Below, in pieces: positions 14,103-39,911 of a stretch of 64,000 nt of DNA. The notes below the pieces were generated by a model, which saw only the letters and a list, made by a program, of their open reading frames with translations, had not been told where the DNA came from and did no database searches. Source of the stretch: Rhodothermales bacterium (GTDB lineage: Bacteria; Bacteroidota; Rhodothermia; Rhodothermales; JAHQVL01); contig JAWXAX010000302.1 in assembly GCA_034439735.1 (NCBI GenBank), positions 40,338 through 104,337 on the forward strand, read 5' to 3'. The stretch's first letter is position 1, and every line of letters starts with the position of its first letter. A program made the translations under genes and the position numbers.

Positions 14103-15452
14103 ATGTTCGAAAATCTGAGCGACAAGCTGGACGTTGCGTTAAAGTCCCTCGCGGGGCAGGGGCGCATCAACGAACTCAACATCGCCGAGACGATGCGTGA
14201 GATCCGGCGTGCATTGCTCGATGCGGACGTCAATTATCAGGTGGCGCGGGAGTTTACGGACAAGGTAAAAGACCAGGTTCTCGGGAGCAAGGTGCTCAAC
14301 GCGGTCTCGCCGGGGCAGCAGCTCGTGAAGATCATCTACGATGAGCTGGTGGACCTGCTCGGGTCGGTCCAGGTAGAGATCAAGACGTCGGCCAAGCCGC
14401 CGACGGTGGTGCTGGTCGCCGGCCTCCAGGGCTCAGGAAAAACGACGTTTTGCGGTAAACTCGCCGCTTATTATAAAGCCAAAGGTTTTGCCCCCATGCT
14501 CGCCGCGGCGGACGTATACCGTCCCGCGGCTGTGGATCAGCTCAAAACCCTCGCCGCCTCCATCGACGTGCCGGTGTATGCGATCGTGGAGGACGGGGTG
14601 GTTGTCCGCGATGCCGTTCGCGTGGCCCGTGAAGCGCTGGCTGAAGCGCGTCGGACCGCGCGTAACCTGCTCATCATCGACACCGCAGGCCGCTTGCATG
14701 TGGATGAGGAGATGATGCGCGAAGTCGAGCAGATCAGGGACGCCGTTTCGCCTACCGAGATCTTGTTCGTCGTCGACAGCATGACGGGTCAGGATGCCGT
14801 CAATACGGCGCTCGAGTTTAATAAGCGGCTGAACTTCGACGGCGTCGTGCTTACGAAACTCGATGGAGACACCCGCGGCGGCGCTGCGCTCTCTATCCGC
14901 TCGGTGGTTCAGAAACCGATCAAGTTTGCCTCGACGGGTGAGAAGTTAGACGCGCTGACGCCGTTTTATCCGGATCGGATGGCGCAGCGGATTCTGGGTA
15001 TGGGGGACGTCGTCTCCTTCGTCGAGCGCGCCCAGGAGCAGTTCGATGAGAAAGAGGCCGATAAACTCCAGCGGCAGATCCGCTCGGAGGATTTTAACCT
15101 CGAGGATTTTTACGAACAGCTGCAGCGCATCAAGAGCATGGGCTCGCTGAAAGATCTGCTCGGCATGATCCCTGGAGTCGGCAAGCAGGTCCGAGACCTG
15201 GACGTGGACGACGACGCGTTTAAACACATCGAGGCCATCATCAACTCCATGACCCCCCTGGAACGGCGCAAGCCGGATCTGCTTAACGGTAACCGTCGCC
15301 GGCGCATTGCCGACGGCTGTGGCATGGAGGTCAAGGACGTCAATCAGCTCATCAAGCAGTTTCATGAGATGAAAAAGATGATGAAGACGATGTCCAAGTT
15401 GATGGGTAAAGGTAGAAATGTCGACCTCCAGGGGCTCCTGGGGGCGCGATAG
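14103..15452 (+). CDS. ffh: Signal recognition particle protein Ffh
   Basis: SRP54 N/G domains (GLQGSGKTT, DTAGR, TKLDGD) and a Met-rich M domain (MKKMMKTMSKLMGKG). Confidence 0.95.
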   Translation: MFENLSDKLDVALKSLAGQGRINELNIAETMREIRRALLDADVNYQVAREFTDKVKDQVLGSKVLNAVSPGQQLVKIIYDELVDLLGSVQVEIKTSAKPPTVVLVAGLQGSGKTTFCGKLAAYYKAKGFAPMLAAADVYRPAAVDQLKTLAASIDVPVYAIVEDGVVVRDAVRVAREALAEARRTARNLLIIDTAGRLHVDEEMMREVEQIRDAVSPTEILFVVDSMTGQDAVNTALEFNKRLNFDGVVLTKLDGDTRGGAALSIRSVVQKPIKFASTGEKLDALTPFYPDRMAQRILGMGDVVSFVERAQEQFDEKEADKLQRQIRSEDFNLEDFYEQLQRIKSMGSLKDLLGMIPGVGKQVRDLDVDDDAFKHIEAIINSMTPLERRKPDLLNGNRRRRIADGCGMEVKDVNQLIKQFHEMKKMMKTMSKLMGKGRNVDLQGLLGAR

Positions 15453-15514
15453 CCGTACGAGCACAACACGAGTTCACTTCGTAACCAAGAAGCGATACAA
15501 AGGAGAGAAGCAAG

Positions 15515-16186
15515 GTGGCAGTAAAACTCCGTCTACGCCGCATGGGGCGTAAAAAACACCCGATCTACGCCGTAGTGGCGACCGATGAGCGCAACCCCCG
15601 CGATGGTAAATACATCGAGGACCTGGGCCGCTATTATGCCGTCGATGAGCCGGTTCGTGTTGAACTTCAGCGCGATCGGATCCTCTACTGGCTCTCACAG
15701 GGCGCGCAGCCGACCGATACCGTGCGCAGCATCTTCAGCCGGCATGGCCTCATGCTGGCGGCCAACCTGCGCCGAAAGGGCAAATCCGAAGCGGAAGTCG
15801 AGGAAGCCGTCCAGGCGTTCCTGACACAGCGCGCGGACAAGCAGCCGCGTAAGCGCACGGTCGCCGACCAGCGTCGCGACGCGCTCGCCCTCGAACGCCA
15901 GGAAGCCTCCAAGCGTGAAGTCGAGAACGCAAAGGCCCGCGCCGAAGCCGAGGCGAAAGCCGAAGCCGAAGCCGATGCCGCGCGCCGAATGGCCGCTGAA
16001 GAGCGTCTGAGGCAGAAGGAAGCCGCTGCGGCCGAAGCCAAAGCCGCGCAGGAAGCAGCCAATGCGGCTCAGGCCGGCGCGGAAACGCCGGCTGAAGCAG
16101 CGCCTGCCGCCGACGCTGCCGCTGAGGCGCCCGCAGAAACGCCTGCCGCTGATGAACCCGCGGCCGGTGAGACCAACGCCAGCTGA
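15515..16186 (+). CDS. rpsP: 30S ribosomal protein S16 with long Ala/Glu/Lys-rich C-terminal extension
   Basis: GTG start. N-terminus VKLRLRRMGRKKHPIYAVVATDERNPRDGKYIEDLG is S16. The last ~140 aa are low-complexity. Confidence 0.9.
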   Translation: MAVKLRLRRMGRKKHPIYAVVATDERNPRDGKYIEDLGRYYAVDEPVRVELQRDRILYWLSQGAQPTDTVRSIFSRHGLMLAANLRRKGKSEAEVEEAVQAFLTQRADKQPRKRTVADQRRDALALERQEASKREVENAKARAEAEAKAEAEADAARRMAAEERLRQKEAAAAEAKAAQEAANAAQAGAETPAEAAPAADAAAEAPAETPAADEPAAGETNAS

Positions 16187-16206
16187 CACGCGCCAGAGGC
16201 CATCCC

Positions 16207-16746
16207 ATGTCAGCTACGGACGCGCATTCGTTACGCCGCATCGGGCGGATCTTACGCGCGCACGGCGTCCTGGGGGAGCTGAAGGTATTGCCGTCGGTTG
16301 CGGATATCGAGGGTCTGGCGACACTCCCTCGGGTCTGGATCGGCGGAGCGCCGGATCAGGCAACGGCACACGCCGTGGAGTGCGTCCGCTTTCAGCATAA
16401 CGCGAAAGGCCGGCTCGTTCTCCTGCGAGTGGCCGGAGTCGTGGGCCGCGAGGCCGCGGAGGCGATGCGTGGTCGCGAGGTATTCGCGGCGGCGGCAGAC
16501 CTACCGGTATCCGATGGCGAAGCATACGATCGCGACCTGCTGGTCGGGCTCGAAGCCTTTGCCGACGGCGCGCCCATTGGCCGTATCCACGATGTGCTGG
16601 AAATGCCCGCGCATCACGTGCTCGTGATTGCGCGGGAAGGTCGGCCCGATGCCCTCGTGCCGGCTGTGCCAGCGTTCATTGAAACGATTGATCTTGCCGC
16701 CGGCCGTCTGGTCATCCGGCCCATCGAGGGCCTGTTGGAAGACTGA
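16207..16746 (+). CDS. rimM: 16S rRNA processing protein RimM
   Basis: [17 protein letters not shown]-terminal pattern, PRC-barrel-like C-terminus, conserved rpsP-rimM-trmD-rplS order. Confidence 0.85.
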
Positions 16747-16772
16747 GGCGAGCGCATACCGGGTTCCGATCC

Positions 16773-17471
16773 GTGCGAATCGATATCGTCACCGCACTGC
16801 CGGACATCGTCCGCGGTCCGCTCGAACACAGCATCATCCAACGCGCCCGCGCTGCCGGGATCGTGTCGATTGTTGTGCACGACATACGGGACTTCACGTT
16901 CGATAAGCATCGACAAGTGGACGATTACCCGTTCGGCGGAGGCGCCGGCATGGTGCTCAAGCCGGAGCCGATCTTCGCCTGCATCGAAGCGATCCAGGCG
17001 GAGGCGGAACAGCGCGGCGAACCGGTAGACGAGGTAGTGTACCTCACGCCGGATGGCGAAGTGTTCCAGCAAGCGATAGCCAACCAGCTCTCCTTGCGGC
17101 GCCATCTGATCCTGCTCGCCGGCCACTATAAAGGCGTCGATCAGCGTGTGCGCGATGCCCTCGTTACCCGCGAGATTTCGATCGGGGACTATGTGCTGAG
17201 CGGTGGTGAGCTGCCTGCCCTCGTCCTCGTCGATGCCCTCGTTCGGCTTGTGCCGGGGGTGCTCGGCGATGCGTCGTCGGCGCTAACCGATTCGCACCAG
17301 GACGGCCTCCTTGCGCCACCCGTCTACACCCGCCCCGCTTTGTATCGCGGGCTCGAGGTGCCGGACGTGTTGATGTCGGGAGATCACCGGGCTATCGATG
17401 CCTGGCGGGACGAACAGAGCCTCGCGCGGACGCGCGAGCGCCGGCCCGACATGCTCGACGCGGCGGATTGA
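16773..17471 (+). CDS. trmD: tRNA (guanine37-N1)-methyltransferase
   Basis: [20 protein letters not shown] and [30 protein letters not shown] motifs. Confidence 0.9.
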
Positions 17472-20690: not shown

Positions 20691-20756
20691 TTATTTAGCA
20701 CTAGTGCTTGACAGGCGCCCGTCCGTCCGTTATCTTTCTGCTAAATATTTAGCACG
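20691..20756 (+). promoter_or_regulatory. Sigma70-like promoter overlapped by dyad operators upstream of the blaI-like gene
   Basis: TTGACA (20708-20713), 17 nt, TATCTT (20731-20736). Perfect 12-bp palindrome AGCACTAGTGCT (20697-20708) abuts the -35. Perfect 16-bp palindrome TGCTAAATATTTAGCA (20739-20754) sits just after the -10. 10-bp direct repeat TATTTAGCAC at 20692 and 20746. Confidence 0.6.
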
Positions 20757-20805
20757 CGTAACCCGGTGGAGCCGGGGGACGTACGGACACACCAGGAAGG
20801 TACGC

Positions 20806-21192
20806 ATGACCACGCCCCAGCACGAACACCTCAGCCGCCGCGAACGGCAAATCATGGATGTGATCTATCAAAAGGGAAAGGCGACGGCCGCCGAAGTGAT
20901 GGATCAGATCCCGGACGCCCCCAGCTACTCTGCCGTGCGTGCGCTGATGCGCATCCTGGTCGAAAAGGGCCACCTGTCGTACGCCCTATCGGGGAATCGG
21001 TACATCTACAAGCCGACCGTGTCGCGGCAGACCGCCAAGCACAACGCGCTACAACACGTGTTGTCGACATTCTTCGAGGGATCCGTTTCGCAGGCGATGG
21101 TGGCGTTGTTGGATCTGACGGACGAGTTGCCGGAGGATGAACTGGAGCGCCTGTCGGTGTTGATCGAAAAAGCCAAAAACGAAGGAAAATGA
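20806..21192 (+). CDS. BlaI/MecI/CopY-family transcriptional repressor
   Basis: ATG 20806 with AGGAAGG 6 nt upstream. LSRRERQIMDVIYQKGKATAAEVMDQIP winged-helix pattern. ATGA overlap with the M56 gene. Confidence 0.85.
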   Translation: MTTPQHEHLSRRERQIMDVIYQKGKATAAEVMDQIPDAPSYSAVRALMRILVEKGHLSYALSGNRYIYKPTVSRQTAKHNALQHVLSTFFEGSVSQAMVALLDLTDELPEDELERLSVLIEKAKNEGK

Positions 21193-23861
21193 CCATGGAC
21201 AACCTGCTCTTCTCGCCGGCCTTCACCCGTGAGGCCTTCGTCGTGCTTTTCGACTACGCACTCAAGGGCGTGATCATTCTTTTGTTCGCCAACCTGCTCG
21301 TCTACCTGCTTCGGCCGGCCTCCGCGGCGATCCTGCATGCGATCTGGACCGTAGCGATGGTGCTGCTGATCCTGGTGCCGATCGCGCCGCGACTCGTGCC
21401 GGGTCTGGACCTGGCGATCCTCGACCCGAGGGCCCTGCCGGGGGTGAGTGGCGCCACGGGATTGGCTGGTGAAAATGCGCCCGAGGATGCGGTAGTTGCC
21501 TACTGGCCCTCGCAAGGCGACTCATATGGGGTATTGAACCGGAATGTGCAGGAGCAGGCTGCACTGGAAGAATCCATGGCCGCGGTGAGGGACAAACAAG
21601 GCTCGGGTGACGCATACATCGTCCGTTCGCCTGACGCCGGCTACCGGATCGAGCCGGCCGCGCCCATTGCTCCTTTGCTTCGAACGCAGACGGCCATGCC
21701 TGTTCTGGACGCTGTGTTGTTGTTTGGGATGACGGCGGGATGGTCGGACTGGATGCTGCTCGTCTGGCTGGGCGGCGTGGTGTTTCTGATAGGATGGATG
21801 ATCTCGGGCGTCGTGGGGCTGTTCTGGCTGCGCCAGCGGTCGACTCATCTGATGGGGGAGGACTGGCAGGATCTCATCGATGAAATCTCCGAACGATATG
21901 CGTTGCGTCGGCCAGTAGCCCTCATGACGAGTGGCCGCATCGCGATGCCGATGACGTGGGGGGTGTGGCGTCCGGTGGTGATGTTGCCCGTCGACGCGGA
22001 GGACTGGCCGGCGGAGCGGCGGCGCTCCGTGCTCCTACACGAAGTGGCCCACATCGCGCGCTGGGATTACCTGACCCAGAGCCTCGCCTATGCCGTGTGC
22101 GCCGTAAACTGGTTCAACCCGCTGGTGTGGCGCGCCGCCGGCCAGATGCGACTCGAACAGGAAAAGGCGTGTGACGACCGGGTGTTGTCCCATGGCATGA
22201 AGGCGACCGCGTACGCCTCGCACCTGATGGACCTCGCCCGGACCGTGCGCTCCGCGTTTGTATCGCCATCCGCTGCGATGTCGATGGCGCGTCCGTCTCA
22301 GCTTGAAGGCCGGCTGATCGCCATCCTGGACGATCGGCACGACCGGCGGACCCCCTCGTGGCGCCGGCTTGTGGGGACGGCGGCGGCATCTTTCGTGCTC
22401 ATTCTACCGCTTGCGGCGATGCAGGTCTGGCGCCCAACGGCAGAGACCGTTTCCGCGAAACCGGCCCGTTTCAGCATGCTCGCGCCGGCGCCCGAGTATG
22501 AAAAGATCGCGGAGGACGCTTCCCTTGCCGCGTTGGCAGAACTCGAGGCCGTACATCTCAACCTGGAGGCGTTGGAGATTGCGAACCAGGAGCTGTACTT
22601 CACGCTGGATATCTCCACGGACACCACCGATGAGCAGCGAAAAGCCGCGCGCCGTAAGGCGATTGTCGCGCTACGCAGCGCGCTGGACGACGAAAACGAG
22701 GCTATCCGGCGCGACGCCGTGATCGCGCTGTATCAGATCGGCGGGGCCGATGCCGTCGATGCCTTTGTTGAGGTCGTCCGCAACGACCCGAGTGCGGACG
22801 TACGCCGGCAGGCCGTCATGGCGCTTAGTCGGGCCAGGGGCGAAACCGCGGAGCAGGGTCTGATCGCCGCGTTGTCCGACGCCGACCGGGATGTCCGGCG
22901 CGACGCGCTGATCGCGCTGAGCAGCCGGGAGGTGACCGAAGCGACGCCGGCATTTGAGCAGGCGTTAAAGGATGAGGACGCCATGATCCGCGCGACGGCC
23001 GTACGGGCCATGGCCGCCCATCCGGCGGAAGGGACCGTCGATGCGCTGGCGGATGTGCTCGCCAACGATGCCTCGCGCGACGTCCGTATCGCGGCGGTGC
23101 AGGGGCTCGGGATGATGCGCGATATCCGCGCGGTGGACGCGCTTTCCGCCGCACTGGAGGATGAGGATGTGGATGTGCGCCGGCTGGCAGCCCAGGCGCT
23201 CAGCCAGCTCAACTATGGGGGGGATGAGCAGGTTCGGCGTACGGTGGGTCGGGCCTGGGGCGGCGTCCTGGCGCCCGGTCAGATTCGGAGTGGGGCAGGT
23301 CCGGGGACGATTTTTTCATCGGCGGAGGCGCCGGCCGTCTGGGGGTATAGCCGGGGCTTGAACGACAGCGCGCGGGTGATGGCGTATTCGGATGATCTGG
23401 CGCGTGTTGGATCGCAGGCACGGGACAATGAGCATATTCAGTTGTTGAATGAGAAGGCATTATGGGAGAACGAACGCAAGCGGGAGGCCATCGAACAAGA
23501 AATGGAAGCATTGCGTGGATTCATAGAGCGCAGTCAGACGGAGGGCGGGGGAGAACAGGATAGTCGCGAACTTATGAAACGCCTGGAGGCGCTGCAGATT
23601 GAACGGGATCTTTCGGATTCTGCACTTGAACACCGACTCCGAATATCTCGATGGCCGCAAGCCGGCGAGACCTTCACTGCAGCCCCCGGTGCTTCGCAAG
23701 AGGAATTGAAGGAAGCACGGATCAGCGAGATGATCCGGTTCATCGAAGAGCAGCCGTCGGGCCCTCGGTGCAAGGAGTATGTTAAGCTGCTCCAGGACAT
23801 GAAGGACAGTAACCCGCGCGCGAAGATCGCCGTGGAGACCCTCAGCTGCGAGAAAGAATGA
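21189..23861 (+). CDS. BlaR1-like M56 membrane metallopeptidase with C-terminal HEAT-repeat and coiled-coil region
   Basis: M56 zinc motif LLHEVAHIARWD after several TM helices. The C-terminal half has at least five DxDVRRxAxxAL HEAT/PBS-lyase-like repeats. No penicillin-binding transpeptidase-like sensor recognisable. Confidence 0.8.
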   Translation: MTMDNLLFSPAFTREAFVVLFDYALKGVIILLFANLLVYLLRPASAAILHAIWTVAMVLLILVPIAPRLVPGLDLAILDPRALPGVSGATGLAGENAPEDAVVAYWPSQGDSYGVLNRNVQEQAALEESMAAVRDKQGSGDAYIVRSPDAGYRIEPAAPIAPLLRTQTAMPVLDAVLLFGMTAGWSDWMLLVWLGGVVFLIGWMISGVVGLFWLRQRSTHLMGEDWQDLIDEISERYALRRPVALMTSGRIAMPMTWGVWRPVVMLPVDAEDWPAERRRSVLLHEVAHIARWDYLTQSLAYAVCAVNWFNPLVWRAAGQMRLEQEKACDDRVLSHGMKATAYASHLMDLARTVRSAFVSPSAAMSMARPSQLEGRLIAILDDRHDRRTPSWRRLVGTAAASFVLILPLAAMQVWRPTAETVSAKPARFSMLAPAPEYEKIAEDASLAALAELEAVHLNLEALEIANQELYFTLDISTDTTDEQRKAARRKAIVALRSALDDENEAIRRDAVIALYQIGGADAVDAFVEVVRNDPSADVRRQAVMALSRARGETAEQGLIAALSDADRDVRRDALIALSSREVTEATPAFEQALKDEDAMIRATAVRAMAAHPAEGTVDALADVLANDASRDVRIAAVQGLGMMRDIRAVDALSAALEDEDVDVRRLAAQALSQLNYGGDEQVRRTVGRAWGGVLAPGQIRSGAGPGTIFSSAEAPAVWGYSRGLNDSARVMAYSDDLARVGSQARDNEHIQLLNEKALWENERKREAIEQEMEALRGFIERSQTEGGGEQDSRELMKRLEALQIERDLSDSALEHRLRISRWPQAGETFTAAPGASQEELKEARISEMIRFIEEQPSGPRCKEYVKLLQDMKDSNPRAKIAVETLSCEKE

Positions 23862-24207
23862 CGTCGTAGTACGCGAGGGCGGCCGGCGTCGCGACGAGGC
23901 GGGTGCCGTTGAGATCGACTTCGAAGAGGGAGGCCTGGCGGGTTTGCCGGGCCTTCCATGTTAACATTCGCTCCACGACAACCTGGACGGCGCCGTCATT
24001 GGAGCGTTCCGCCAGCGCCGGCCCGTCGAGCCCCAGCTCGTCCTGCATGAACACGAGCCAGCTGCCGTCGGACAGGACGGCGCGCACATGACCGTCCTGC
24101 ACATACAGCTGGCGGATGGCGCGGGCCATCACAGGATAGATGTGATGATGCAGCCGGGCTGCCGGCACGGGCCGGCCGCGGGCTTGCAGCGAAGGAAGGC
24201 GAGGCAT
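23842..24207 (-). CDS. Hypothetical protein (last gene of the envelope operon)
   Basis: 121-aa ORF starting 14 nt after the receiver-gene stop on the same strand. No motif recognised. Its 3-prime end overlaps the convergent blaR1-like gene by 20 nt. Confidence 0.4.
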   Translation of the reverse strand: MPRLPSLQARGRPVPAARLHHHIYPVMARAIRQLYVQDGHVRAVLSDGSWLVFMQDELGLDGPALAERSNDGAVQVVVERMLTWKARQTRQASLFEVDLNGTRLVATPAALAYYDVILSRS

Positions 24208-24220
24208 GAGGACACGGGAG

Positions 24221-24604
24221 TCACGCGGCGAGGAGTTGGGTAATGGTTTCGAGTAGCTGTTTCTGGGTGAAAGGTTTGCTCACATAGCCGTCGAACCCCA
24301 TGTTGAGGAACCGGTTACGATCTCCGGGCATGGCGTAGGCAGTAAGCGCGATGATCGGAATGGATGCGTAATGACCCTTCTGGCGGATCATGTTGAGCAG
24401 ATCGATGCCTGTACGCTCTTCGCCGAGGTGAATATCAACCAGGAGCAAGTCAAACGTATGCTGCGTTGTCAATTGCAGCGCCTCATCGATTTTGCACGCG
24501 ATGTCGATTTTGTATGAAGCCTGCAGAAAATACCGCAACAGGATCTGTGTGTCGGCATTGTCTTCGACCACCAGAATATGGGTAGCTGCCGGCTTTATAC
24601 TCAT
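24221..24604 (-). CDS. Single-domain CheY-like response regulator receiver
   Basis: ILVVEDNADTQILL, phospho-acceptor context FDLLLVDIHL, conserved ALTAY and K in GFDGYVSKPF. No output domain. Confidence 0.85.
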   Translation of the reverse strand: MSIKPAATHILVVEDNADTQILLRYFLQASYKIDIACKIDEALQLTTQHTFDLLLVDIHLGEERTGIDLLNMIRQKGHYASIPIIALTAYAMPGDRNRFLNMGFDGYVSKPFTQKQLLETITQLLAA

Positions 24605-24668
24605 CGTTCGCTCTGGGCCTCATCTATGCCTCAGCTGCGGGCGAAGGCAAAAGTAGATAGTGATAGGA

Positions 24669-26750
24669 CTATGAATCGTGCTTCCAGCGTAGCTGCATGC
24701 GCACCGTGCGGAACCGAGGGCCCTCGAACAGATCCGGCCCGCTGCCGGCCCGACGATCCACCGGGTACGACGCACGCTCGAACTTGACTTCAAACGTCAA
24801 GGCAGGGCCTGCCCGGTAGGACATCAGAATATAAAACCGATCGCCATTCCCCGCATACTGTGCAACGATAAAGCGTGAATATACATCGTCCTCATAGGCA
24901 AAAGCCGTCGCGTCCGCACCTGTGGATGCGAACGAGGCAAACCGGGTGGTGAGGCGAAGCCACGTCGCCGGCCTCCAGGTAATGTCGCTATACAGCAGGA
25001 CCCCGCGCTGGCGCTTGCCAGGCCTGTCCGCCAGGACCCAGTCCGCCCGCATACGAAGGAGCAACGCGGGGCTATGCGTGTAGCTGGCGTGGAGGCGGAA
25101 GGTGCGTCTCCGTGTGGCATATAACCCATCGACCACGCGACCGGCTGCATCCACATACATGCCGCCGGTTTCAGTCTGTTGTTGGCGGTATTGGAGGTAG
25201 CCGCCGATGTACGGCGCCGGCTCGACATTGAGGCGGATACTGGCTTCACGGCCCTGACCGGGGAGGGGGAGGCCGGTGCGTGGCCACGGGTGCCCGAAAC
25301 GGTCGATATACCCGGCCATAGACCACCGCCGCGACGGGGTGATGCGTATCGCGAGGTAGACGCCCTCCTCGTTCTGAGGGATGGACCCCGCGGCGCGAAA
25401 GGCATTGCCATACAATGGGGCGAACGCCGGCTGGAAGCGCCGCGCCACGAACAGCGCTTCGAGGCGCGGATCGGGCACGATCTGGCCTCCGACAATCAGC
25501 CCATCGCCACCTCCGGCCGTGCGGCCATACTCGGCGAACAGGTGGGCGGATCGGGAGCCATACCTCGCGAAGGCGCTGGAGGCGGACTGACGCCTGCCCC
25601 GGAAGTCGAAGGCCTCATAGAGGGCGTCGCCAGCAGCGATGGGCATGTCGAACTGGCCGAGGACATGCACGATCCCGACGCTCCACGAACGGGCGGCGGC
25701 AAGCAGGCGGAACCCGGCCGTATTCGAACGCAGAACGCCGCGCCGGGCGCGTTCGGTGGCCGTCCTGTGGAGGCCGGTCCGGTTGATGGCCCGTACCTCG
25801 GCCAGTGGGCCCGTATCGGTCAGGACGGTGTCGATCGAGGCGGCGAGTGCGCGTCGGGAAGCAAATACCAGGAGTTGGGTCCCACGTAGCGGAGCCACTT
25901 CCACGGCCGCGCCACGGAAGAAGGCGCTTTCGCCGGCACTACCGTACGGGCTGAGCCCGCTGCCCGAAACAAGCGGATCGAGGGTAGGCGCGGCGCCGGC
26001 GATCGCGCGATATGGCGCCCCGAGGAGCAATCCGTGCCCGGCCTGCGCCAGGTAATCCCCCACGACCAGGCGACGAAGCCAGCGGCGGCCGGACCACGAA
26101 ATGCTGCCAGCAACGTGATCCATCCCCAGGACTCCCCGGTTGGGCTCCCAGCTCAGTGCCTCGCCGGCGTCTTTCTCCATTGCAAACCGAACCGAGGCGC
26201 CGCCGCGATCGAGGCGGAGGCGCGTATACGCCGCCAGCGGCGACCCCGAAAAAGCCGGCCCGATGGAATCGCCGGGATCGGAACGGAAGCCGCTGCGGAG
26301 GTCGAGGTCGCGGCTGAACCGTTGCAGGATTTCGATGCGCGTGCGGGGCGGGCTCCTGTCAGCTCCTGGTGTCTCCGGGTCAGTGAAAGCCACGAAAGGG
26401 GCCAGCCGGCGGGCGGTATCGGCATCGAAGCCGGGGAGTCCCGCCAGAGCGTCGAGGGACGCGAGAGCAGGGGATAGCGAGAGTCGCGCGGTGAGCGCCG
26501 CTTTTTGTATGGCGCTCAGGTAGGGCAGGCGGTCGACGTCGCGCACGGCGGCGGCATCCAGTAAAAGGGGCTGTTCGAGAAGCGTCTGCCAGAAGTGGAG
26601 GAGAGCTTCCGCATCCGATTCGTCCGTCGGGAGGGATTCCAGCAGGTCGTCCCATCCGGCGAATAACGACTCGGGCGTCTGTGCCCTGGCCGACGTTGCG
26701 GACATTCCGCAGAGCAGGATCAGGCAGGCAACAAGTAGTGACGAAGGCAT
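24669..26750 (-). CDS. Helix-hairpin-helix (ComEA-like) domain protein fused to a large predicted outer-membrane beta-barrel-like region
   Basis: Signal peptide. Two HhH-like segments (VRDVDRLPYLSAIQKAALTARL; LDALAGLPGFDADTARRLAPFV). The remaining ~550 aa have an alternating Tyr/Arg/Gly-rich strand-like pattern. Confidence 0.6.
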   Translation of the reverse strand: MPSSLLVACLILLCGMSATSARAQTPESLFAGWDDLLESLPTDESDAEALLHFWQTLLEQPLLLDAAAVRDVDRLPYLSAIQKAALTARLSLSPALASLDALAGLPGFDADTARRLAPFVAFTDPETPGADRSPPRTRIEILQRFSRDLDLRSGFRSDPGDSIGPAFSGSPLAAYTRLRLDRGGASVRFAMEKDAGEALSWEPNRGVLGMDHVAGSISWSGRRWLRRLVVGDYLAQAGHGLLLGAPYRAIAGAAPTLDPLVSGSGLSPYGSAGESAFFRGAAVEVAPLRGTQLLVFASRRALAASIDTVLTDTGPLAEVRAINRTGLHRTATERARRGVLRSNTAGFRLLAAARSWSVGIVHVLGQFDMPIAAGDALYEAFDFRGRRQSASSAFARYGSRSAHLFAEYGRTAGGGDGLIVGGQIVPDPRLEALFVARRFQPAFAPLYGNAFRAAGSIPQNEEGVYLAIRITPSRRWSMAGYIDRFGHPWPRTGLPLPGQGREASIRLNVEPAPYIGGYLQYRQQQTETGGMYVDAAGRVVDGLYATRRRTFRLHASYTHSPALLLRMRADWVLADRPGKRQRGVLLYSDITWRPATWLRLTTRFASFASTGADATAFAYEDDVYSRFIVAQYAGNGDRFYILMSYRAGPALTFEVKFERASYPVDRRAGSGPDLFEGPRFRTVRMQLRWKHDS

Positions 26751-26804
26751 GGTACGGGCGGCCGGAGGAAGGGGGCTCTACCCGTACTAGACAGTTTTTG
26801 GAGA

Positions 26805-27074
26805 TCAGGCGTACCGTCTGTCGCGCATATTTTTTGCGAGATAAAAGGCGAGGGCTCCGAAAAACGAGACGAACCAGACGACGAAGGTCGCGCCGAAGAG
26901 GAATCCCGGCCGCCCCGATGGAAGGGCGAGCAGCACCTCGAATCGGTGCGCGTACCAGGCGCCGATGGCGTAAAACAGCCAGTAGAGCGACATCAAGGCG
27001 GCGAAGGCGCCGGCTTTACGAGAGATCGCGTTGGATGTGGGCGTCATAAGCGAGGCCAGGAGGCGGAGGGTCAT
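26805..27074 (-). CDS. Small integral membrane protein, unknown function
   Basis: 89-aa ORF with three hydrophobic helices, lying between two same-strand envelope genes. Confidence 0.5.
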   Translation of the reverse strand: MTLRLLASLMTPTSNAISRKAGAFAALMSLYWLFYAIGAWYAHRFEVLLALPSGRPGFLFGATFVVWFVSFFGALAFYLAKNMRDRRYA

Positions 27075-27182
27075 GGGAGCGGGGGCGAGTGGGAGCGGAA
27101 CCGGTTACAAGAAACGAAACACGCGGGCAAGGACGGGGTCGGGCGCACGCAATCCACACTCGCCTTTGGCGCGGCTTATATG

Positions 27183-28031
27183 CTACAATGCGCCACGTCC
27201 ATGGACGTATATGGCCACGGCCGGCGTCCACCCCAGCGCATAGTGCCGTTCGGCGGTGGCTTCGGCGTGAATCCACGTGGTTCGGACGGCCACGCCCGCC
27301 GATAGCCGCCATGGTTCCCCGGTCGCGCCGGCGCGCAGCGCCAGCGCCCGCACAGGACGCCACTCGAGGCCGGCATGGAGCGACGTCGACGCGCGGCCGC
27401 TCCGTCGGAGGGCGAGGAGGAGTGCGGTCTCGGGTGTCGGCTGGTACAGCGCGCCCAGGGCAAACCGCCGGGACAGGGGCTCGCCCGCAGCCCATCGGGG
27501 GCCATTGACGTTCTCCGCCGCCGCGCCCAGGCGGAGCGTGGGGACGACATCCACCTGCCAACCGGCGGAGAGTCCAATGGCCGTGGCGTTGCCGTAGTCC
27601 TCGATCGTAACCCGGTGCAGGGCGATACGGACGCCCATGGCGATGGGGCGATGGGTGCCGGGGAACAGGGGTCGCGCCACGCCGGCCAGCCAGCTGGATT
27701 CGCGGTAGGCCGCGTCGCCGAAACTGGCGGCGCCGGCCGCGACGACCGTCCGCCCAAGCGGCACCGCGACACGCGCGGCGCCTTCGCGTAGCTCGGGAAG
27801 ACCAAACCCCTCCGCGGCAAAGAAGCCCGCCGTCGCCGAGCGAATGGCCGCCCAGGACGCCGGGTTGGCGATCCCCCAGAGGTCGCCGCCGAGAGCCGGC
27901 GTGGCCCCGCCCAGAGCGATGGCGGCCGCGCCTTCACGCGCCGGTTGGGCGCCGGCGGCCCGCATGGGAAGGAGCAGAAGAAGGGCGATCACGCCGCGCA
28001 GTGCGGCGGAAGCTGGAGGCGAAGTGTGCAT
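27183..28031 (-). CDS. Putative outer-membrane beta-barrel, PorV/PorQ-like
   Basis: Signal peptide. AAAIALGGATPALGGDLWGIANPASWAAI resembles the N-terminal GG...NPA motif of PorV/PorQ/FadL-like barrels. Alternating strand pattern. Weak, by eye. Confidence 0.45.
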   Translation of the reverse strand: MHTSPPASAALRGVIALLLLLPMRAAGAQPAREGAAAIALGGATPALGGDLWGIANPASWAAIRSATAGFFAAEGFGLPELREGAARVAVPLGRTVVAAGAASFGDAAYRESSWLAGVARPLFPGTHRPIAMGVRIALHRVTIEDYGNATAIGLSAGWQVDVVPTLRLGAAAENVNGPRWAAGEPLSRRFALGALYQPTPETALLLALRRSGRASTSLHAGLEWRPVRALALRAGATGEPWRLSAGVAVRTTWIHAEATAERHYALGWTPAVAIYVHGRGAL

Positions 28032-28188: not shown

Positions 28189-29130
28189 ATGCCGAACCCA
28201 ACCCGACGCACGTCTCGCTTTTCTTCTCGCCTTATCCGCTTCCTGCTTCTGGGGTTGGGGGTTATGGTAGGGGCGCCGGCTACCGCGCCGACGGCCCACG
28301 CACAGGAATTTAACTGCCAGGTCACGGTCTCCATCGCCCAACTCACGGGCTCCGAGTTTACGTTCTTGCAGGAGCTTGGCGAACAGATCGAGCTCTATAT
28401 GAACGAGCGGTCTTTCACGCAGGACCGGTACCTGGATGTCGAGCGCATCGACTGCCTCATGCAGGTGATCTTCGAGGAAGCGGTCACCCTCACCAGCTTT
28501 CAGGCCCGGATCGTGTTATCCAGCCGGCGACCCATTTACGGTGTGCCGCAGGTCTCGACGGTCCTTCAAATCAGCGATACCGGCTGGCAGTTTAACTACG
28601 CCCAGGGGTCGCCGCTGGTATTCGATCTCGAGAAGTTCGATCCCCTGACGTCGGTGCTCAACTTCTACGCCTACATCATGCTGGGCTACGACTACGACAC
28701 ATTTGCGGAATTTGGAGGCTCCGCCCACTTCGAGCGGGCGCGGCGCATCGCGGCGCTGGCGGAGTCCCAGAACGCGCTCGGTTGGGTCGATCTGGGTGAC
28801 AACCGGGGCCGGAAAGATCTGATCGAGCAGGTGCTGGATCCCCGCTTTAAGCCACTCCGGAAGGTCTATTTCGACTACCACTACGCCGGCCTTGACGCCT
28901 TCGTCTCGGAGAATGAGGCGGCGCGAGGCAGTATTCTCGCGGCGATTGAGAGCCTGGACGCTCTTTATGATGAGATGTCGCGATCGTATGTGTTCGACAT
29001 CTTTTTCTCAAGCAAAGCCGAGGAGATCGCCGCGGTGTTTGACGACTCTCCCCTGAGTTCACAGGCGTACGATGTGCTCCGCCGTGTCGACCCCGCGAAC
29101 CTGTCGAAATACGATAAGCTGGTGAACTGA
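28189..29130 (+). CDS. DUF4835 family protein (T9SS PorD-like)
   Basis: ATG 28189. After the signal peptide, AQEFNCQVTVSIAQLTGSEFTFLQELGEQIELYMNERSFT ... ERIDCLMQVIF follows the DUF4835 pattern over the full length. Confidence 0.75.
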   Translation: MPNPTRRTSRFSSRLIRFLLLGLGVMVGAPATAPTAHAQEFNCQVTVSIAQLTGSEFTFLQELGEQIELYMNERSFTQDRYLDVERIDCLMQVIFEEAVTLTSFQARIVLSSRRPIYGVPQVSTVLQISDTGWQFNYAQGSPLVFDLEKFDPLTSVLNFYAYIMLGYDYDTFAEFGGSAHFERARRIAALAESQNALGWVDLGDNRGRKDLIEQVLDPRFKPLRKVYFDYHYAGLDAFVSENEAARGSILAAIESLDALYDEMSRSYVFDIFFSSKAEEIAAVFDDSPLSSQAYDVLRRVDPANLSKYDKLVN

Positions 29131-29335: not shown

Positions 29336-29444
29336 ATGAGCGAAAATGATATGGCGCTGCACCCCTGGAGGTTCCGATGCCGCTTCGGCGGCGCGGTGGC
29401 CGGCCGGCAATGATGAACTATTTTCCCACCCAGACTACGACGTT

Positions 29445-31622
29445 ATGATCACTGGTATCGAGGCCCGCGGAAAGAGCCTGCTGGGCCTTCTGCTCTTGAG
29501 CGGTACGTTGCTTTCCGCTCAGGCGCAGCCCGAGCAGAACGACCCCTTGAAAGCGGGGCGGTTCGACAATGGGAAGATGTGGACGTTCGACTATCCGCCG
29601 GCCGACTACTTCGAGGAGGCCTATGGTTTTTCGCCGGATGAGGCCTGGTTCGATCGGGCGCGTCTGGGGGCGCTTCGCATCCCGGGCTGCACGGCGTCGT
29701 TCGTTAGTTCGACGGGTCTGGTGCTCACCAACCACCATTGCGGCCGCGGTCCGGTGGCTCAGGTGACGCAGGCCGGCGAAAACCTTTTGGACGATGGCTT
29801 TTATGCCCCCTCGCTGGCCGAAGAGCGGATCGTTCCCGGTTTCTATGCGGATCAGATGATCGCCATCGCCGATGTGACCGACGAGGTTTTCGCGGCCCAG
29901 CAGGGCATGGAGACCGACGCGGAGCGGGCGGCGGCGCGCGATGAGGCTGTACAGCGCATCCAGGACCGCCTCACGACGGAAGCCGGCGGCGCCGAAGCCG
30001 GCATCGTGGTCGAGGTCACCCCCCTGTACCACGGAGGTCGCTACTCGGCCTACACCTTCCGCCGCTACCCGGATGTCCGCCTCGTGATGGCGCCGGAACT
30101 CCAGATGGGCTTTTTTGGCGGCGACGATGATAATTTCACCTTTCCCCGATACGCGCTCGACATGACTTTTTTCCGGGTGTACGACGACGCCGGCGAGCCG
30201 CTCGAAACGGAGCACTACTTCACCTGGAGCCTCGAAGGCGTGCAGCCGGGGCATCCGGTGTTCGTCATCGGCAACCCGGGTAGCACGAGCCGCCTCGAGA
30301 CTGTCGCCCAGCTTGACCTCCGCCGCGACGTGACGGACAAAAGCCTGCTCGCGTTTGTCTCCAGCCGCCTCGCCGCCCTCGAACGGTACCAGGAATCCCT
30401 GCCGCCGTCGCAACGTTCGGACGCGACGCGCAATCAGATCTTTTCGCTGCGGAATGCCCAGAAGGCGTATACCGGGCAGCAGGCCGCACTGGTCGATCCC
30501 GTGGTGGTCGCGCGTAAAAAAGATGCCGAGCGCGCGTTTATGGAGGCGATCCGGGCGGATGCCGCGTTGACCGCCACCTATGGGTCCGTGATTTCGGAGA
30601 TAGCCGAAACCCAGACGAGCTTCCGCGAGCTCGGCGCTGAATACGGCGCATTCTTCGGCCTCACCAGCGCCGCCTATTCTTCGGCGCTGATGCGGCGGGC
30701 GATAGCCGCCTACACCTACCTGGAACGCCGGGCAGCTGGCCAGCAAGGCGCGGCCCTCGACCCCCTTGAAACGCAGATCAACGGCATCGCCGATCAGCCC
30801 GAGGGGCTCGCCCGTGAACTGCTCGCGACCCGCCTGCACGATTTTTTGACGTACTTCGGAACGGAGGACACAGTGGTGCAAACTGCGCTCGCCGGCGCCT
30901 CGCCGGAGGACCGCGCCGCGGCGCTCCTCGCGTCGTCCGCCCTCGCCACCGCCGAGAAGACACAGCAGGCGATGGCAAATGAGACGCTCACGATGGAGGA
31001 TCCCGCGGTGATCCTGGTCGGCGCCTTCATCCAGCGATATCGTGACTTTCAGAGCGCCTCGGCCGGGCTCACCGGCCGGCAGAACGAACTAGCCAGCCAA
31101 CTCGGCCGGGCGCGCTTCGCGGTGTATGACACGGACGTTCCACCCGACGCCACGTTTTCGCTCCGCATCGCCGACGGGGTCGTCGCCGGCTACCCCTACA
31201 ACGGCACCTTTGCCTCGCCGTTCACCAGCTTCTACGGGTTGTACGATCACTATTATTCCTACGGAGCAGGCTCCGCGTGGGACCTGCCGGCGCGCTGGCT
31301 CAAGCCGCCGGCGACCTTCGATATGGGGGTACCCATGAACTTCGCCTCGACGAACGACATCATCGGCGGCAATTCCGGCTCTCCGGTCTTGAATCAGGAC
31401 CTCGAACTGGTGGGCCTCATCTTCGACGGCAACATCGAGAGCCTCGCCGGCGAGTTTATGTATCTCCCCGAGAAAAACCGCGCGGTGTCTGTTGATGCCC
31501 GCGGTATACTGGAGGCGCTGGATGAGATCTACGATGCGGATCGGATCGTCCTCGAACTCACGGAGGACGAACTCGTCCCTACCGAGGACGAGGCCGACCG
31601 TAGCCGCGGCAGCCAGCGCTGA
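29445..31622 (+). CDS. S46 family dipeptidyl-peptidase (DPP7/DPP11-like), paralog 1
   Basis: ATG 29445 with type I signal peptide. Catalytic His block GLVLTNHHCG and Ser block IIGGNSGSPVLNQDLELVGLIFDGN. Confidence 0.85.
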   Translation: MITGIEARGKSLLGLLLLSGTLLSAQAQPEQNDPLKAGRFDNGKMWTFDYPPADYFEEAYGFSPDEAWFDRARLGALRIPGCTASFVSSTGLVLTNHHCGRGPVAQVTQAGENLLDDGFYAPSLAEERIVPGFYADQMIAIADVTDEVFAAQQGMETDAERAAARDEAVQRIQDRLTTEAGGAEAGIVVEVTPLYHGGRYSAYTFRRYPDVRLVMAPELQMGFFGGDDDNFTFPRYALDMTFFRVYDDAGEPLETEHYFTWSLEGVQPGHPVFVIGNPGSTSRLETVAQLDLRRDVTDKSLLAFVSSRLAALERYQESLPPSQRSDATRNQIFSLRNAQKAYTGQQAALVDPVVVARKKDAERAFMEAIRADAALTATYGSVISEIAETQTSFRELGAEYGAFFGLTSAAYSSALMRRAIAAYTYLERRAAGQQGAALDPLETQINGIADQPEGLARELLATRLHDFLTYFGTEDTVVQTALAGASPEDRAAALLASSALATAEKTQQAMANETLTMEDPAVILVGAFIQRYRDFQSASAGLTGRQNELASQLGRARFAVYDTDVPPDATFSLRIADGVVAGYPYNGTFASPFTSFYGLYDHYYSYGAGSAWDLPARWLKPPATFDMGVPMNFASTNDIIGGNSGSPVLNQDLELVGLIFDGNIESLAGEFMYLPEKNRAVSVDARGILEALDEIYDADRIVLELTEDELVPTEDEADRSRGSQR

Positions 31623-31640
31623 GCGCGCCGCCTGCCCCCT

Positions 31641-31690
31641 CGATAGCGTTTGAACGATAGCGTTTGAACGATAGCTTTTGAACTATCTTA
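31641..31690. repeat. 14-bp tandem repeat CGATAGCGTTTGAA x3.5 between the S46 paralogs
   Basis: CGATAGCGTTTGAA CGATAGCGTTTGAA CGATAGCTTTTGAA CTATCTTA read directly. Ends 4 nt before ATG 31695. Confidence 0.9.
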
Positions 31691-31694
31691 GCCG

Positions 31695-33941
31695 ATGATT
31701 TTCATGACAGCATTCGCGCGCCCAGCACTCGTCGCCCTCGCCCTGGTTCTGATGACCGGCTGCGCCACGACGACCAGTGAGATGGCCGTCATCACCGAGC
31801 GCCCCCGGCCAGCCGCGCCCCCAACCGTCACGCCGGCGGCCGACGTGACGACGCCCGCCCCTGAAGAGACCATCCAGCCCGGCCGGTTTGATGGCGGTAA
31901 GATGTGGACGTTCGACAACCCGCCGCTCGAGTACTTCCGCGAAGCGTACGGTCTCGAACTGAATGATCAGTGGTTTGAAGTCGCCAGCCGGAGCGCTCTG
32001 CGTTTCGGCGAGAGCTGCTCAGCCTCGTTTGTCTCCCGTCGCGGCCTTGTGATGACCAACCACCACTGCGCCCGTGAGAGCATCACCAAAGTAAGCGGCG
32101 CCGGCGAGTCCTTGCTCGATGACGGGTTCTACGCGACCTCCCTCGACGCCGAACGGAAAGTGGAGGACCTGTATGTCGATCAGCTGCTGTTTATCGCGGA
32201 CGTGACGGATAAGCTTACCGATGACATCCCGGACTATCAAAACGACGAAGAGGAGGCCGACGCGCGCGAGCGCGCCATCGAAGCACTCGAAGAGCGGATG
32301 ACCCGCGACGCGCGCGGTCAGGATACCACGCATATCGTGCAGATCGTCCCGCTGTACAACGGCGGTAAGTATTCGGCCTACACGTTTAAGCGCTACAGCG
32401 ACGTGCGCCTCGTGGTCGCGCCTGAGCTGCTGATGGGCAAGTTCGGCGGCGATCCGGACAACTTCACGTATCCGCGGTATTCGCTGGACATGACGTTCTT
32501 CCGGGTGTATGGCCCCGACGGGGCGCCCATAGAAACCCGCTATTTCTTCCCGTGGAGCACCGCCGGCGTGCAGGAAGGTGACCCCGTTTTTGTGGTCGGT
32601 AACCCTGGCTCCACCAGCCGGCTCAATACCATCAGCCAGCTGGAGTATGAGCGCGACTTCGACCTCCCGCAGCAGCTCGAAGTGCTGACCGCGTTCGCCG
32701 GCATCATGAAGACTTACCTCGATACCCAGCCACCCGGTGACGCGAACGGGGACATACGGAACGATTATTACTCGCTCTCCAACTCGATCAAGGCGATGGA
32801 GGGCCAGCTTGCCGGTCTCCGCGATCCCGCGCTTATGGCGCGCAAACGCGCTGCCGAGCAGAACCTCCGCCGCGCCATCGACGCCGACCCGAAGCTGAAG
32901 GCCGACTACGGGAACGTGCTAGATGACCTCCTTGCCGTGCAGGCTTCTAAGAAGGCAACGGCCCGCCAGGCCGGCGCGCTCACCTTTTATGGCTCCGCGC
33001 TAGGGTCGCGCATCCTCACTCGCGCACTCTACGGCTATGCCTACACGCTCCTCAAACAACGCGGCGCTACGCAAACAACCCTCGACGAGCTGCTCAAGGA
33101 CGCCAACGAACTGAAAGATTACCCGCCTGAAGTGGAACGCAGCCTCATCGTGGCCCGCATCCGTCAAATGGAAAGATACCTCGGCCGCACGGACCCCACC
33201 ATTCGTGGCATGCTCCAGGGCCTCACGCCCGAAGCGTTGGCGGATACCCTGGTCGCCACCTCCGCCCTCGTCGATTCCGCCCGATTCGTCGTCCTGCTGG
33301 ATGGCACCTACCTCTCCAGCAAAGACGCGTCGGTGCCCGTCATCAACGCCCTCGCGCCCCTGTATTTTACGCTCGGCCAGCAGATCGGAAGCTTTGGCGA
33401 CCGCGAGGGCAATCTCAACGCCGAACTCTCCCGCGCTCGCTTCGCCGTCGACGGCTTCACCAGCCCGCCGGACGCGACCTTCTCGCTGCGCCTCACCGAT
33501 GGCGTCGTACAGGGTTATGCCTACAACGGAACAGTCGCACCGTACAAGACGACTTTTTATGGTGTTTACGATCACTATGTGACCTACGGCCCGAACTCCG
33601 AGTGGGATCTGCCCGAAGCCTGGAAGCGTGTGCCTCCTGGCCTCGACCTGTCTACCCCGCTCAATCTGGTTTCCACCAACGACATCACCGGCGGTAACTC
33701 TGGCTCCCCGCTGCTCAACAAGAATCTAGAAGTGGTGGGATTGATCTTCGACGGCAATATCGAATCGCTGCCCAACGAGTATGTTTATACCGACAAAGCC
33801 GCCCGCGCCATCTCGGTTGACGCTCGCGGGATTCTGGAAGCGCTGGATGAGATGTACGACGCCGATCGGATCGTCCTCGAGCTGACCGCCGGCCAGATGA
33901 CGGCGACAGAGCAGGAAGCGGATGCGGTGAGAGGGGAATGA
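31695..33941 (+). CDS. S46 family dipeptidyl-peptidase, paralog 2 (lipoprotein signal)
   Basis: LVLMTGC lipobox. GLVMTNHHCA and ITGGNSGSPLLNKNLEVVGLIFDGN. Collinear with paralog 1. Confidence 0.85.
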   Translation: MIFMTAFARPALVALALVLMTGCATTTSEMAVITERPRPAAPPTVTPAADVTTPAPEETIQPGRFDGGKMWTFDNPPLEYFREAYGLELNDQWFEVASRSALRFGESCSASFVSRRGLVMTNHHCARESITKVSGAGESLLDDGFYATSLDAERKVEDLYVDQLLFIADVTDKLTDDIPDYQNDEEEADARERAIEALEERMTRDARGQDTTHIVQIVPLYNGGKYSAYTFKRYSDVRLVVAPELLMGKFGGDPDNFTYPRYSLDMTFFRVYGPDGAPIETRYFFPWSTAGVQEGDPVFVVGNPGSTSRLNTISQLEYERDFDLPQQLEVLTAFAGIMKTYLDTQPPGDANGDIRNDYYSLSNSIKAMEGQLAGLRDPALMARKRAAEQNLRRAIDADPKLKADYGNVLDDLLAVQASKKATARQAGALTFYGSALGSRILTRALYGYAYTLLKQRGATQTTLDELLKDANELKDYPPEVERSLIVARIRQMERYLGRTDPTIRGMLQGLTPEALADTLVATSALVDSARFVVLLDGTYLSSKDASVPVINALAPLYFTLGQQIGSFGDREGNLNAELSRARFAVDGFTSPPDATFSLRLTDGVVQGYAYNGTVAPYKTTFYGVYDHYVTYGPNSEWDLPEAWKRVPPGLDLSTPLNLVSTNDITGGNSGSPLLNKNLEVVGLIFDGNIESLPNEYVYTDKAARAISVDARGILEALDEMYDADRIVLELTAGQMTATEQEADAVRGE

Positions 33942-34391: not shown

Positions 34392-34498
34392 GGGGGCCCT
34401 GGGAGGTAAGCTTGCAGATCAGCCATAGAATAGCGATTCTGCGGCAAAAATCACAGCCCGGCGTCTTTCTTCAGCCCCCGGCCCTTGCTTCTGAGGGG

Positions 34499-34678: not shown

Positions 34679-34889
34679 ACCGACGCGGCGTTTCCGGTAA
34701 TGGGGAGACGTCGGGACGTACACGATCGAGGTGACTCGGGAAGGCGCGAAGGCGCGCGAAACGCTCGTGATTGAGGCCGCCGTCCGGCGTTGAGAAAAAA
34801 ACGTGTCAGTGTCGTGCAGAAGCGCTATTTTCGCCCTATCCACCAAACACGCCAGACGCGCGACGCGGTACATGCAAGGAGAAAAAGAT

Positions 34890-39908: not shown

Positions 39909-39911
39909 CCG

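Follow-up and report, generated by a model that had tools for sequence, protein, structure and literature searches.

A conserved pair of outer-membrane β-barrels with a ComEA-like domain in a Rhodothermales bacterium: a tentative link to DNA uptake

In the 64,000-nucleotide stretch of contig JAWXAX010000302.1 of a Rhodothermales bacterium analyzed here (the window, in what follows), five consecutive genes on the minus strand include two that encode β-barrel proteins, a small barrel of 282 amino acids (aa) and a large barrel of 693 aa with an N-terminal, ComEA-type helix-hairpin-helix domain, (HhH)2. We propose that the two barrels may form an outer-membrane complex that serves the uptake of DNA toward the inner-membrane channel ComEC. 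This proposal is tentative, and we put it somewhat short of an even chance. The evidence that carries it is the nature of the two barrels, their tight pairing across Rhodothermota and Bacteroidota, the ancestry of the N-terminal domain and the operons of other lineages in which this barrel family is linked to comEC. As far as we could find, the two-barrel module is uncharacterized: the literature on competence in Bacteroidota, on ComEA-barrel proteins, on PorD, on PorV-like proteins and on T9SS (type IX secretion system) together with transformation yielded no paper on this family.

The 282-aa protein carries a signal peptide (cleavage between AGA and Q), and its AlphaFold2 model (pLDDT 85) is a 14-strand barrel with two short N-terminal helices. 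Foldseek matched this model to OmpG (6e-8), to the PorV chains 6h3i_F (TMq 0.70) and 8gl6_F and to the FadL family, and the structures of the FadL mutants N33A and P34A were among the matches. Indeed, the small barrel has the sequence N56-P57-A58, which is invariant in 14 family sequences, as is Q29, and FadL channels carry NPA in the N-terminal segment as their hatch motif. The preliminary description of this DNA had called the protein PorV/PorQ-like. Fold and family support this, since 10 of the 14 family members match the PorV/PorQ model NF033709 (best 5e-7), but the window protein itself gave no match to that model at E ≤ 1 and none to any other model of Pfam or NCBIfam; PDB sequences searched with the family profile gave no match either. 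At 282 aa, compared to 345 and 367 aa, the protein is ~60 to 90 residues shorter than the solved PorV chains, which suggests shorter loops. Judged from the model, it is a predicted 14-strand outer-membrane barrel of the FadL/PorV superfamily with an N-terminal NPA hatch.

The 693-aa protein is composed of a signal peptide, an acidic helical linker, the ComEA-type (HhH)2 domain and a large β-barrel. Its start codon agrees with that of orthologues of 694 to 695 aa and leads to a cleavage site between ARA and Q, whereas the public annotation of an identical protein (SH809_21175) has only 678 aa, starts 15 codons downstream and loses the signal peptide. In the AlphaFold2 model (pLDDT 85.7, pTM 0.84), residues ~33 to 120 are helical and are followed by ~26 β-strands, and the long barrel loops carry the conserved polar motifs EKDAGE, GDYxxQxGQGL...FGKG, GLHRTxxE and QNExG. 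The barrel portion has no sequence match in Pfam, NCBIfam or the PDB. Foldseek against the PDB found only generic large barrels for the model, with TM scores of 0.3 to 0.4, among them MtrB (2e-11, TMq 0.40), TonB-dependent transporters, FimD and AlgE. For neither of the two barrel families is there a Pfam or NCBIfam model of its own, or a solved structure that comes close.

Closer inspection of the N-terminal domain revealed its relationship to ComEA. The profile of the 693-aa family matched the ComEA structures 8dss (5e-12), 8dfk and 2duy across the whole (HhH)2 unit of ~60 residues, and it also matched Tex and EEPD1; HHH_3 (PF12836) was found in 31 of 40 family members and TIGR01259 (comEA) in 20 of 40. 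The HhH element named in the preliminary description is confirmed at the level of the family, but the window protein lacks an HHH_3 match of its own. Despite this, its N-terminal domain aligns in register with the family, and on these profile matches we regard it as homologous to the ComEA-type (HhH)2 unit.

To describe the genomic neighborhood, hidden Markov models (HMMs) of the families were run against the translated open reading frames (ORFs) of two sets of loci, a genome set of 89 non-redundant loci and a second set with 83 members, of which 80 stem from a metagenome scan and three from context look-ups; genes were called as longest ORFs, and their starts are approximate. A search with the 693-aa protein found 43 homologues, and scans for the family gave at least 544 species-level hits in genomes and at least 548 in metagenomes. 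In 46 of 49 Rhodothermales-type and 26 of 35 Bacteroidia-type genome loci (72 of 84 together), and in 55 of the 67 loci that could be evaluated in the second, mainly metagenomic set, the gene immediately upstream of the large barrel is that of the small one. Over all 151 evaluable loci of Rhodothermota and Bacteroidota, the pair is adjacent, and often overlapping, in 127, and the called genes of several Bacteroidia-type contigs share a start/stop overlap of 4 nt. The other neighbors are far less constant. A divergent porD gene stands beside the pair in 38 of 44 Rhodothermales-type but in none of 33 Bacteroidia-type loci, and a receiver gene follows downstream in 30 of 47 Rhodothermales-type but in none of 31 Bacteroidia-type loci, at a distance of 150 to 550 nt from the large barrel in Salinibacter-type loci. 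Beyond the receiver, the genes vary (M56/BlaI, SCO1/CusF, or a zinc ribbon protein with a Tricorn-like protein), and a constant receiver amid changing further neighbors hints at co-regulation with the pair. From these counts it follows that the ancient unit is the two-barrel pair, and the five-gene arrangement of the window is a young elaboration in one Rhodothermales lineage.

Several further observations concern the surroundings of the pair. In Cytophagales-type loci (L045, L060, L067 to L071, L073, L084, L086, L089 and L092), it lies within a conserved housekeeping block of fabF, rnc, nadE, lgt and a gene for a 484-aa Omp85/surface-antigen-like protein, with identities judged by eye from the sequence. 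In 11 Salinibacter-type loci (L002, at 4718 to 5779, and 10 others), recA is found immediately beyond porD; in L011 and L012, dprA lies 8 kb upstream, and downstream there is a helicase-nuclease pair that resembles AddAB. These DNA-metabolism neighbors may or may not be meaningful. Two family members bear labels from outside the Bacteroidota, L064 (a Comamonadaceae metagenome-assembled genome [MAG]) and P0025 (Massilibacillus), and both are probably mis-binned, because L064 has a GC content of 0.41 and a layout like that of the Flavobacteriales locus L076.

The most telling neighbor of the large barrel is comEC. In 18 of the 70 evaluable loci of the second set (L093 counted), comEC follows directly 3′ of the large barrel gene, with gaps of −13 to +3 nt and a single value of −53 nt that is owed to the longest-ORF start call. 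The order small barrel, large barrel, comEC was seen in 6 of these 18 loci. In L093, the large barrel gene is followed by comEC and recQ with overlapping genes, and recQ after comEC was also seen in L098, L100 and L101. The comEC-linked loci form a Sphingobacterium-like clade, 38 to 87% identical to the L093-type query, with one member from a Sphingobacterium MAG. In L007, the order is reversed: comEC, encoding DUF4131 and Competence domains, ends 2 nt before the gene of the large-barrel homologue. Furthermore, L007 and L093 differ in GC content (0.60 versus 0.38), and their barrels and ComEC proteins are only 25% and 24% identical, respectively. For these reasons (reversed order, GC difference and low identity of both proteins), L007 is an independent linkage event, and the linkage to comEC arose at least twice. 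We take this twice-arisen operon fusion as the best available clue to the function of the pair, one that would fit the ComEA ancestry of the N-terminal domain.

In the window, the preliminary description had listed five consecutive minus-strand genes with gaps of 108, 54, 64 and 13 nt, and the ORF list agrees exactly in order, lengths and gaps (Table 1). The spacing of 157 nt to the divergent gene is also correct if that gene starts at its signal-peptide start, M39, at position 28189; its product is indeed PorD, as had been supposed (NF052317, 261.8 bits versus a cutoff of 170, 6e-78; PF16119 [DUF4835], 258.6 bits versus a cutoff of 25, 8e-77).

Table 1. Positions of the five clustered genes, of the divergent porD gene and of the two domains of the large barrel protein in the window
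Feature	Positions	Strand	Remarks
282-aa ORF (small barrel)	27183-28031	minus	ORF list; core gene 1 of the conserved pair
89-aa ORF (two-transmembrane protein)	26805-27074	minus	ORF list; sits between the two barrel genes
693-aa ORF (large barrel)	24669-26750	minus	ORF list; core gene 2 of the conserved pair
ComEA-like (HhH)2 domain of the large barrel	26385-26573	minus	residues ~60-122; predicted periplasmic
Large β-barrel	24675-26342	minus	residues ~137-692; ~26 strands (DSSP of the model)
127-aa ORF (receiver)	24221-24604	minus	ORF list
121-aa ORF	23842-24207	minus	ORF list; starts 13 nt past the receiver
porD (DUF4835), T9SS protein PorD	28189-29130	plus	divergent from the 282-aa gene; longest ORF from 28075

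All five ORFs are under purifying selection and behave as genes. The ratio of nonsynonymous to synonymous substitutions (dN/dS) is 0.07 to 0.34 compared to two relatives, and the GC content at third codon positions (GC3) is 0.65 to 0.81, versus 0.54 for an antisense ORF over the 89-aa gene. The full five-gene order is conserved in L010, whose large barrel is ~48% identical to the 693-aa protein; L001, with a large barrel of 77% identity, agrees as far as its contig reaches, which starts inside the 282-aa gene. No terminator-like site was found in any intergenic gap of the cluster, and the four such sites that were found lie within coding sequence and match the chance rate in number. A scan for sigma-70 promoters gave no match, and the Bacteroidetes-type −7 motif TAnnTTTG occurs at chance level (6 in 64 kb versus 6.9 expected) and is uninformative; one occurrence, TACTTTTG at 24648 to 24655 (minus strand), lies 44 nt 5′ of the start codon of the receiver gene. 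The operon of the preliminary description is plausible, given the common strand, the gaps of 13 to 108 nt, the lack of intergenic terminator-like sites and the order kept in L001 and L010, but such an operon would be recent and limited to one lineage. Likewise, the description as a cell-surface or envelope module is right for two of the five, the 282- and 693-aa products, with their signal peptides and confident β-barrel models.

The fourth gene encodes a stand-alone receiver of 127 aa (PF00072, 4e-23, 82.1 bits versus a cutoff of 30.2), as had been described. Its phospho-acceptor set is intact, with the acidic pocket, D57, T87, Y106 and K109, and the motifs VEDN, DINL, ALTAYA and Y.SKPF are kept in 32 orthologues, the window protein reading DIHL for DINL. 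With a dN/dS of 0.07, the gene is well conserved, and its closest NCBIfam matches are the receivers of the hybrid kinases HrmK, TorS and BarA. It is likewise correct that the cluster encodes no kinase or output domain, and among the scanned ORFs of the window there was neither a kinase nor a histidine phosphotransfer (Hpt) protein. Since the receiver lacks an output domain, any regulation would have to proceed by protein contacts or by its acting as a phosphate sink. The preliminary description had put the whole module under phosphorelay control. We regard such control of the barrel pair as only a possibility: the receiver is intact but lacks an output domain and resides in the cytoplasm, whereas the barrels are in the outer membrane.

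The 89-aa protein had been credited with three transmembrane segments. Hydropathy and an alignment of five orthologues give two hydrophobic spans instead, at residues ~21 to 42 and 57 to 79. The gene has a dN/dS of 0.20 to 0.30 and a GC3 of 0.79, its family amounts to 6 clusters in a database of 5.8 billion proteins, and among the fetched loci it adjoins the large-barrel gene in L001, L010, L017 and L048 only. The 121-aa protein is cytoplasmic, has a dN/dS of 0.12 to 0.19 and shows conservation from end to end in L001 and L010, the only fetched loci in which it was found; its family has 6 representatives among 1.84 billion proteins. Its gene is probably translationally coupled to that of the receiver. 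Neither of the two products has a match in Pfam or NCBIfam. The 121-aa protein was also considered as an Hpt domain, and this was rejected: its conserved stretch VQDGHVRAVLSDGSWLVFMQ looks β-rich by eye, and there is no family match.

In our model, the 282- and 693-aa proteins would be exported by Sec and inserted into the outer membrane, where both barrels would form a heterodimeric complex. The heterodimer is suggested by analogy with SprA-PorV and BamA-BamG and by the tight gene pairing. The ComEA-type (HhH)2 domain of the large barrel would hang in the periplasm. The large barrel would be the site where DNA docks or passes, the ComEA-like domain may hold the DNA or may dock the complex to ComEC or ComEA, and the DNA would finally be handed over to the ComEC channel in the inner membrane. 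In the Rhodothermales lineage at hand, the pair would have gained the two-transmembrane 89-aa protein, the receiver and the 121-aa protein. The genes, folds, homologies and neighborhood counts are observations; the complex, DNA as its substrate and the regulatory link are what we infer. Since the same barrel family is found in comEC operons of other lineages, a role in DNA uptake is the most likely one. A more far-reaching version, in which the pair is the missing, pilus-independent DNA-uptake channel of Bacteroidota and Rhodothermota, consists of monomeric barrels, delivers DNA to ComEC by way of the fused, ComEA-derived domain and is wired to a phosphorelay in Rhodothermales through the receiver and its 121-aa partner, seems rather unlikely to us.

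A number of results weigh against a role in DNA uptake. Of 16 comEC-linked loci, 10 have no small barrel upstream. The 64-kb window contains no comEC, dprA or comF (ComEC HMM), and phmmer with a single ComEC query, that of L007, found no comEC within 8 kb in the genome loci L013 to L092. Taken alone, the 693-aa protein of the window stays below the Pfam and NCBIfam thresholds for HHH_3 and comEA. The G-h-G hairpins of ComEA are lost: this protein has LPYLS and LPGFD instead, and the family as a whole LPxLS and GxD. The (HhH)2 domain of the window protein has a net charge of 0. Most Bacteroidia-type members are acidic, at −1 to −8, as is the comEC-linked group, at −6; Salinibacter-type members have +1 to +6. 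The lost hairpins and the charge argue against simple DNA binding by the HhH domain. Because the hairpins are degenerate and the charge is neutral or acidic, the domain may instead dock to ComEC or to free ComEA. Finally, a transposon screen for transformation genes of Riemerella anatipestifer did not report the barrel family, whose presence in that organism is not established (PMC8459023).

It is also imaginable that the pair has nothing to do with DNA and is a general outer-membrane transport or biogenesis pair, for example for a hydrophobic or polymeric substrate, in which the HhH domain is a docking or structural module and the linkage to comEC is incidental. The acidic or degenerate HhH domains would agree with this, as would the matches of 693-aa family members to GspK and PsbU, which are not known to bind DNA. 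The NPA hatch of the partner barrel is of the FadL type, as is usual in channels that take hydrophobic substrates, the Cytophagales context is one of housekeeping and envelope genes (lgt, the Omp85-like protein, PagL), and the strong conservation of polar motifs in the loops points to a binding site for a particular ligand. However, an incidental linkage to comEC would have to account for at least two origins, opposite gene orders and overlapping frames, and the best matches of the domain, ComEA, Tex and EEPD1, are nucleic-acid binders; we consider this reading somewhat improbable. The preliminary description had thought of a possible association with the T9SS. In a T9SS accessory module, the small barrel would be a carrier or anchor of the PorV/PorQ type and the large barrel a docking or translocation partner, acting with PorD under the control of the receiver. 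This reading draws on membership in the PorV superfamily and on the adjacent porD gene. Relatives of the 282-aa protein match PorV/PorQ, PorV is among its top two structural matches, the barrel family is confined to T9SS-bearing phyla among the matches listed, and a cargo protein whose C-terminal domain (CTD) is of the CHU_C type-B kind is encoded in the same genome, at 36729 to 39908. But the divergent porD is confined to Rhodothermales-type loci (38 of 44 versus 0 of 33), and elsewhere the pair has housekeeping genes (fabF, rnc, nadE, lgt) or comEC as neighbors. Furthermore, the 282-aa barrel is shorter than the solved PorV chains by the ~60 to 90 residues given above, no T9SS CTD was found in the cluster, the deletion of PorD gave no detectable T9SS phenotype in Flavobacterium johnsoniae (PMC10994853), and FadL/PorV-like barrels also serve outside the T9SS, as BamG does (PMC12578637). 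A T9SS accessory module is therefore, in our view, unlikely.

The remaining explanation regards the five genes as a single signaling-plus-surface device, with the receiver, the 121-aa and the 89-aa protein as dedicated regulators or subunits under phosphorelay. The genes share one strand, short gaps and the lack of an intergenic terminator-like site, in 30 of 47 Rhodothermales-type loci the receiver keeps its place beside the pair although its further neighbors vary, and its orthologues are well conserved (dN/dS 0.07). However, the receiver is absent from 17 Rhodothermales-type and all Bacteroidia-type loci, its distance to the large barrel reaches 150 to 550 nt in Salinibacter-type loci, and the 89- and 121-aa genes are confined to close relatives. 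In addition, the receiver has no output domain and resides in another compartment than the barrels, and no kinase or Hpt protein is encoded by the scanned ORFs of the window. We therefore judge a single five-gene device quite improbable and retain DNA uptake by the two barrels, with the reservations named above, as our preferred reading.

Complexes of a large barrel with a FadL-like barrel have precedents in Bacteroidota (PMC10994853, PMC12578637). The SprA(Sov)-PorV translocon of the T9SS is a like pair of a large barrel and a 14-strand FadL-like barrel of the PorV family in the same phyla. However, the 693-aa protein, with its ~26-strand barrel, has no sequence match or close fold match to SprA, and no CTD cargo accompanies the pair. 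The genes sprA and porV are not known to be encoded together, whereas those of our two barrels are. In BamA-BamG, a FadL-homologous 14-strand barrel is bound tightly to a larger barrel as a structural partner and not as a fatty-acid channel (PMC12578637). Chains of BAM complexes (9n2d_B and 9hiv_F) were among the structural matches of the 282-aa protein, with scores below those of PorV; unlike BamA, the 693-aa protein does not belong to Omp85; it lacks POTRA domains and does not match BamA.

With ComEA (TIGR01259, PF12836; 8dss, 8dfk, 2duy), the large barrel shares the homologous (HhH)2 unit (5e-12) and, in some lineages, a linkage of the family to comEC. There are also differences: here the domain is fused to an outer-membrane barrel, whereas ComEA is small and either a soluble periplasmic protein or held by an inner-membrane anchor; LPxLS and GxD stand in place of the G-I-G hairpins, and many members, that of the window included, have a domain of neutral or acidic charge. 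In R. anatipestifer, the one species screened, a DNA-uptake route has been proposed that consists of an outer-membrane barrel and a separate HhH protein (RA0C_RS04915, RA0C_RS04920 and RA0C_RS02645) and that, in its authors' description, does not resemble the familiar machinery of transformation (PMC8459023). Of these proteins, one is a barrel of the CarboxypepD_reg type, another a surface protein with DUF5689/DUF5017, and the third is ComEA-like, its HhH domain lying at residues 236 to 301 (PMC8459023). None of them, RA0C_RS02645 included, has the architecture of the 693-aa protein, and they are set apart by architecture alone. A stand-alone HhH protein also occurs near a family member: in L006, where recJ and recQ lie near the large-barrel homologue, a stretch on the minus strand (15251 to 17174) encodes a separate 295-aa HHH_3 (ComEA-like) protein and a 347-aa protein, 6 kb off, with recJ/recQ on the other side. 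The 295-aa protein resembles the stand-alone HhH protein needed for transformation of R. anatipestifer. The PilQ secretin of the type IV pilus of Proteobacteria would perform the same step as the barrel pair, the passage of DNA across the outer membrane, followed by ComEA and ComEC. Its fold, a multimeric secretin, is unrelated to that of a monomeric barrel pair, and no pilus genes are present in the cluster. The 127-aa protein, finally, is a complete receiver like the single-domain CheY-like regulators, but no chemotaxis or motor genes are nearby, and by sequence it comes nearest to hybrid-kinase receivers.

Other genes of the window are noted here for their position. Convergent to the cluster, on the plus strand at 20704 to 23861, lie genes for a BlaI-like repressor (162 aa) and for a BlaR1-type M56 peptidase with HEAT repeats (890 aa); the 3′ ends of the M56 gene and of the 121-aa gene overlap by 20 nt, and a BlaI/M56 pair is also found beyond the cluster in L001, L010, L017 and L059. 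Downstream of porD, at 29346 to 33941 on the plus strand, are two tandem genes for S46 peptidases of the DPP7/DPP11 type, and such a pair also flanks porD in L010, L011, L012, L030 and L048. A 12-nt tandem repeat, GGCAGACACTGC, occupies positions 34497 to 34670 (14.5 copies, 80% matches) just upstream of a gene for a LuxR-type response regulator (34803 to 35546) and yields a spurious, repetitive ORF on the minus strand. Three plus-strand genes follow one another at 36729 to 43363. The first encodes a 1,059-aa FG-GAP/CARDB protein that bears a CHU_C (type-B) sorting domain of the T9SS. The product of the second, of 600 aa, matches PorP/SprF weakly and was also hit by the small-barrel HMM (1e-5), and the third encodes a MotA/ExbB-plus-Big_1 protein of 543 aa. 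From its domains, this trio looks like a T9SS type-B cargo protein with an anchor and a motor-like protein.

In sum, the barrel pair described here is a concrete, testable candidate for the step by which DNA crosses the outer membrane in Bacteroidota. If our model is true, the pair would be the third case, after SprA-PorV and BamA-BamG, in which Bacteroidota combine a large barrel with a FadL-like barrel. Even if the link to DNA fails, the pair would still be a widespread component of the envelope. The five-gene layout with its putative phosphorelay is local to one lineage of the Rhodothermales.

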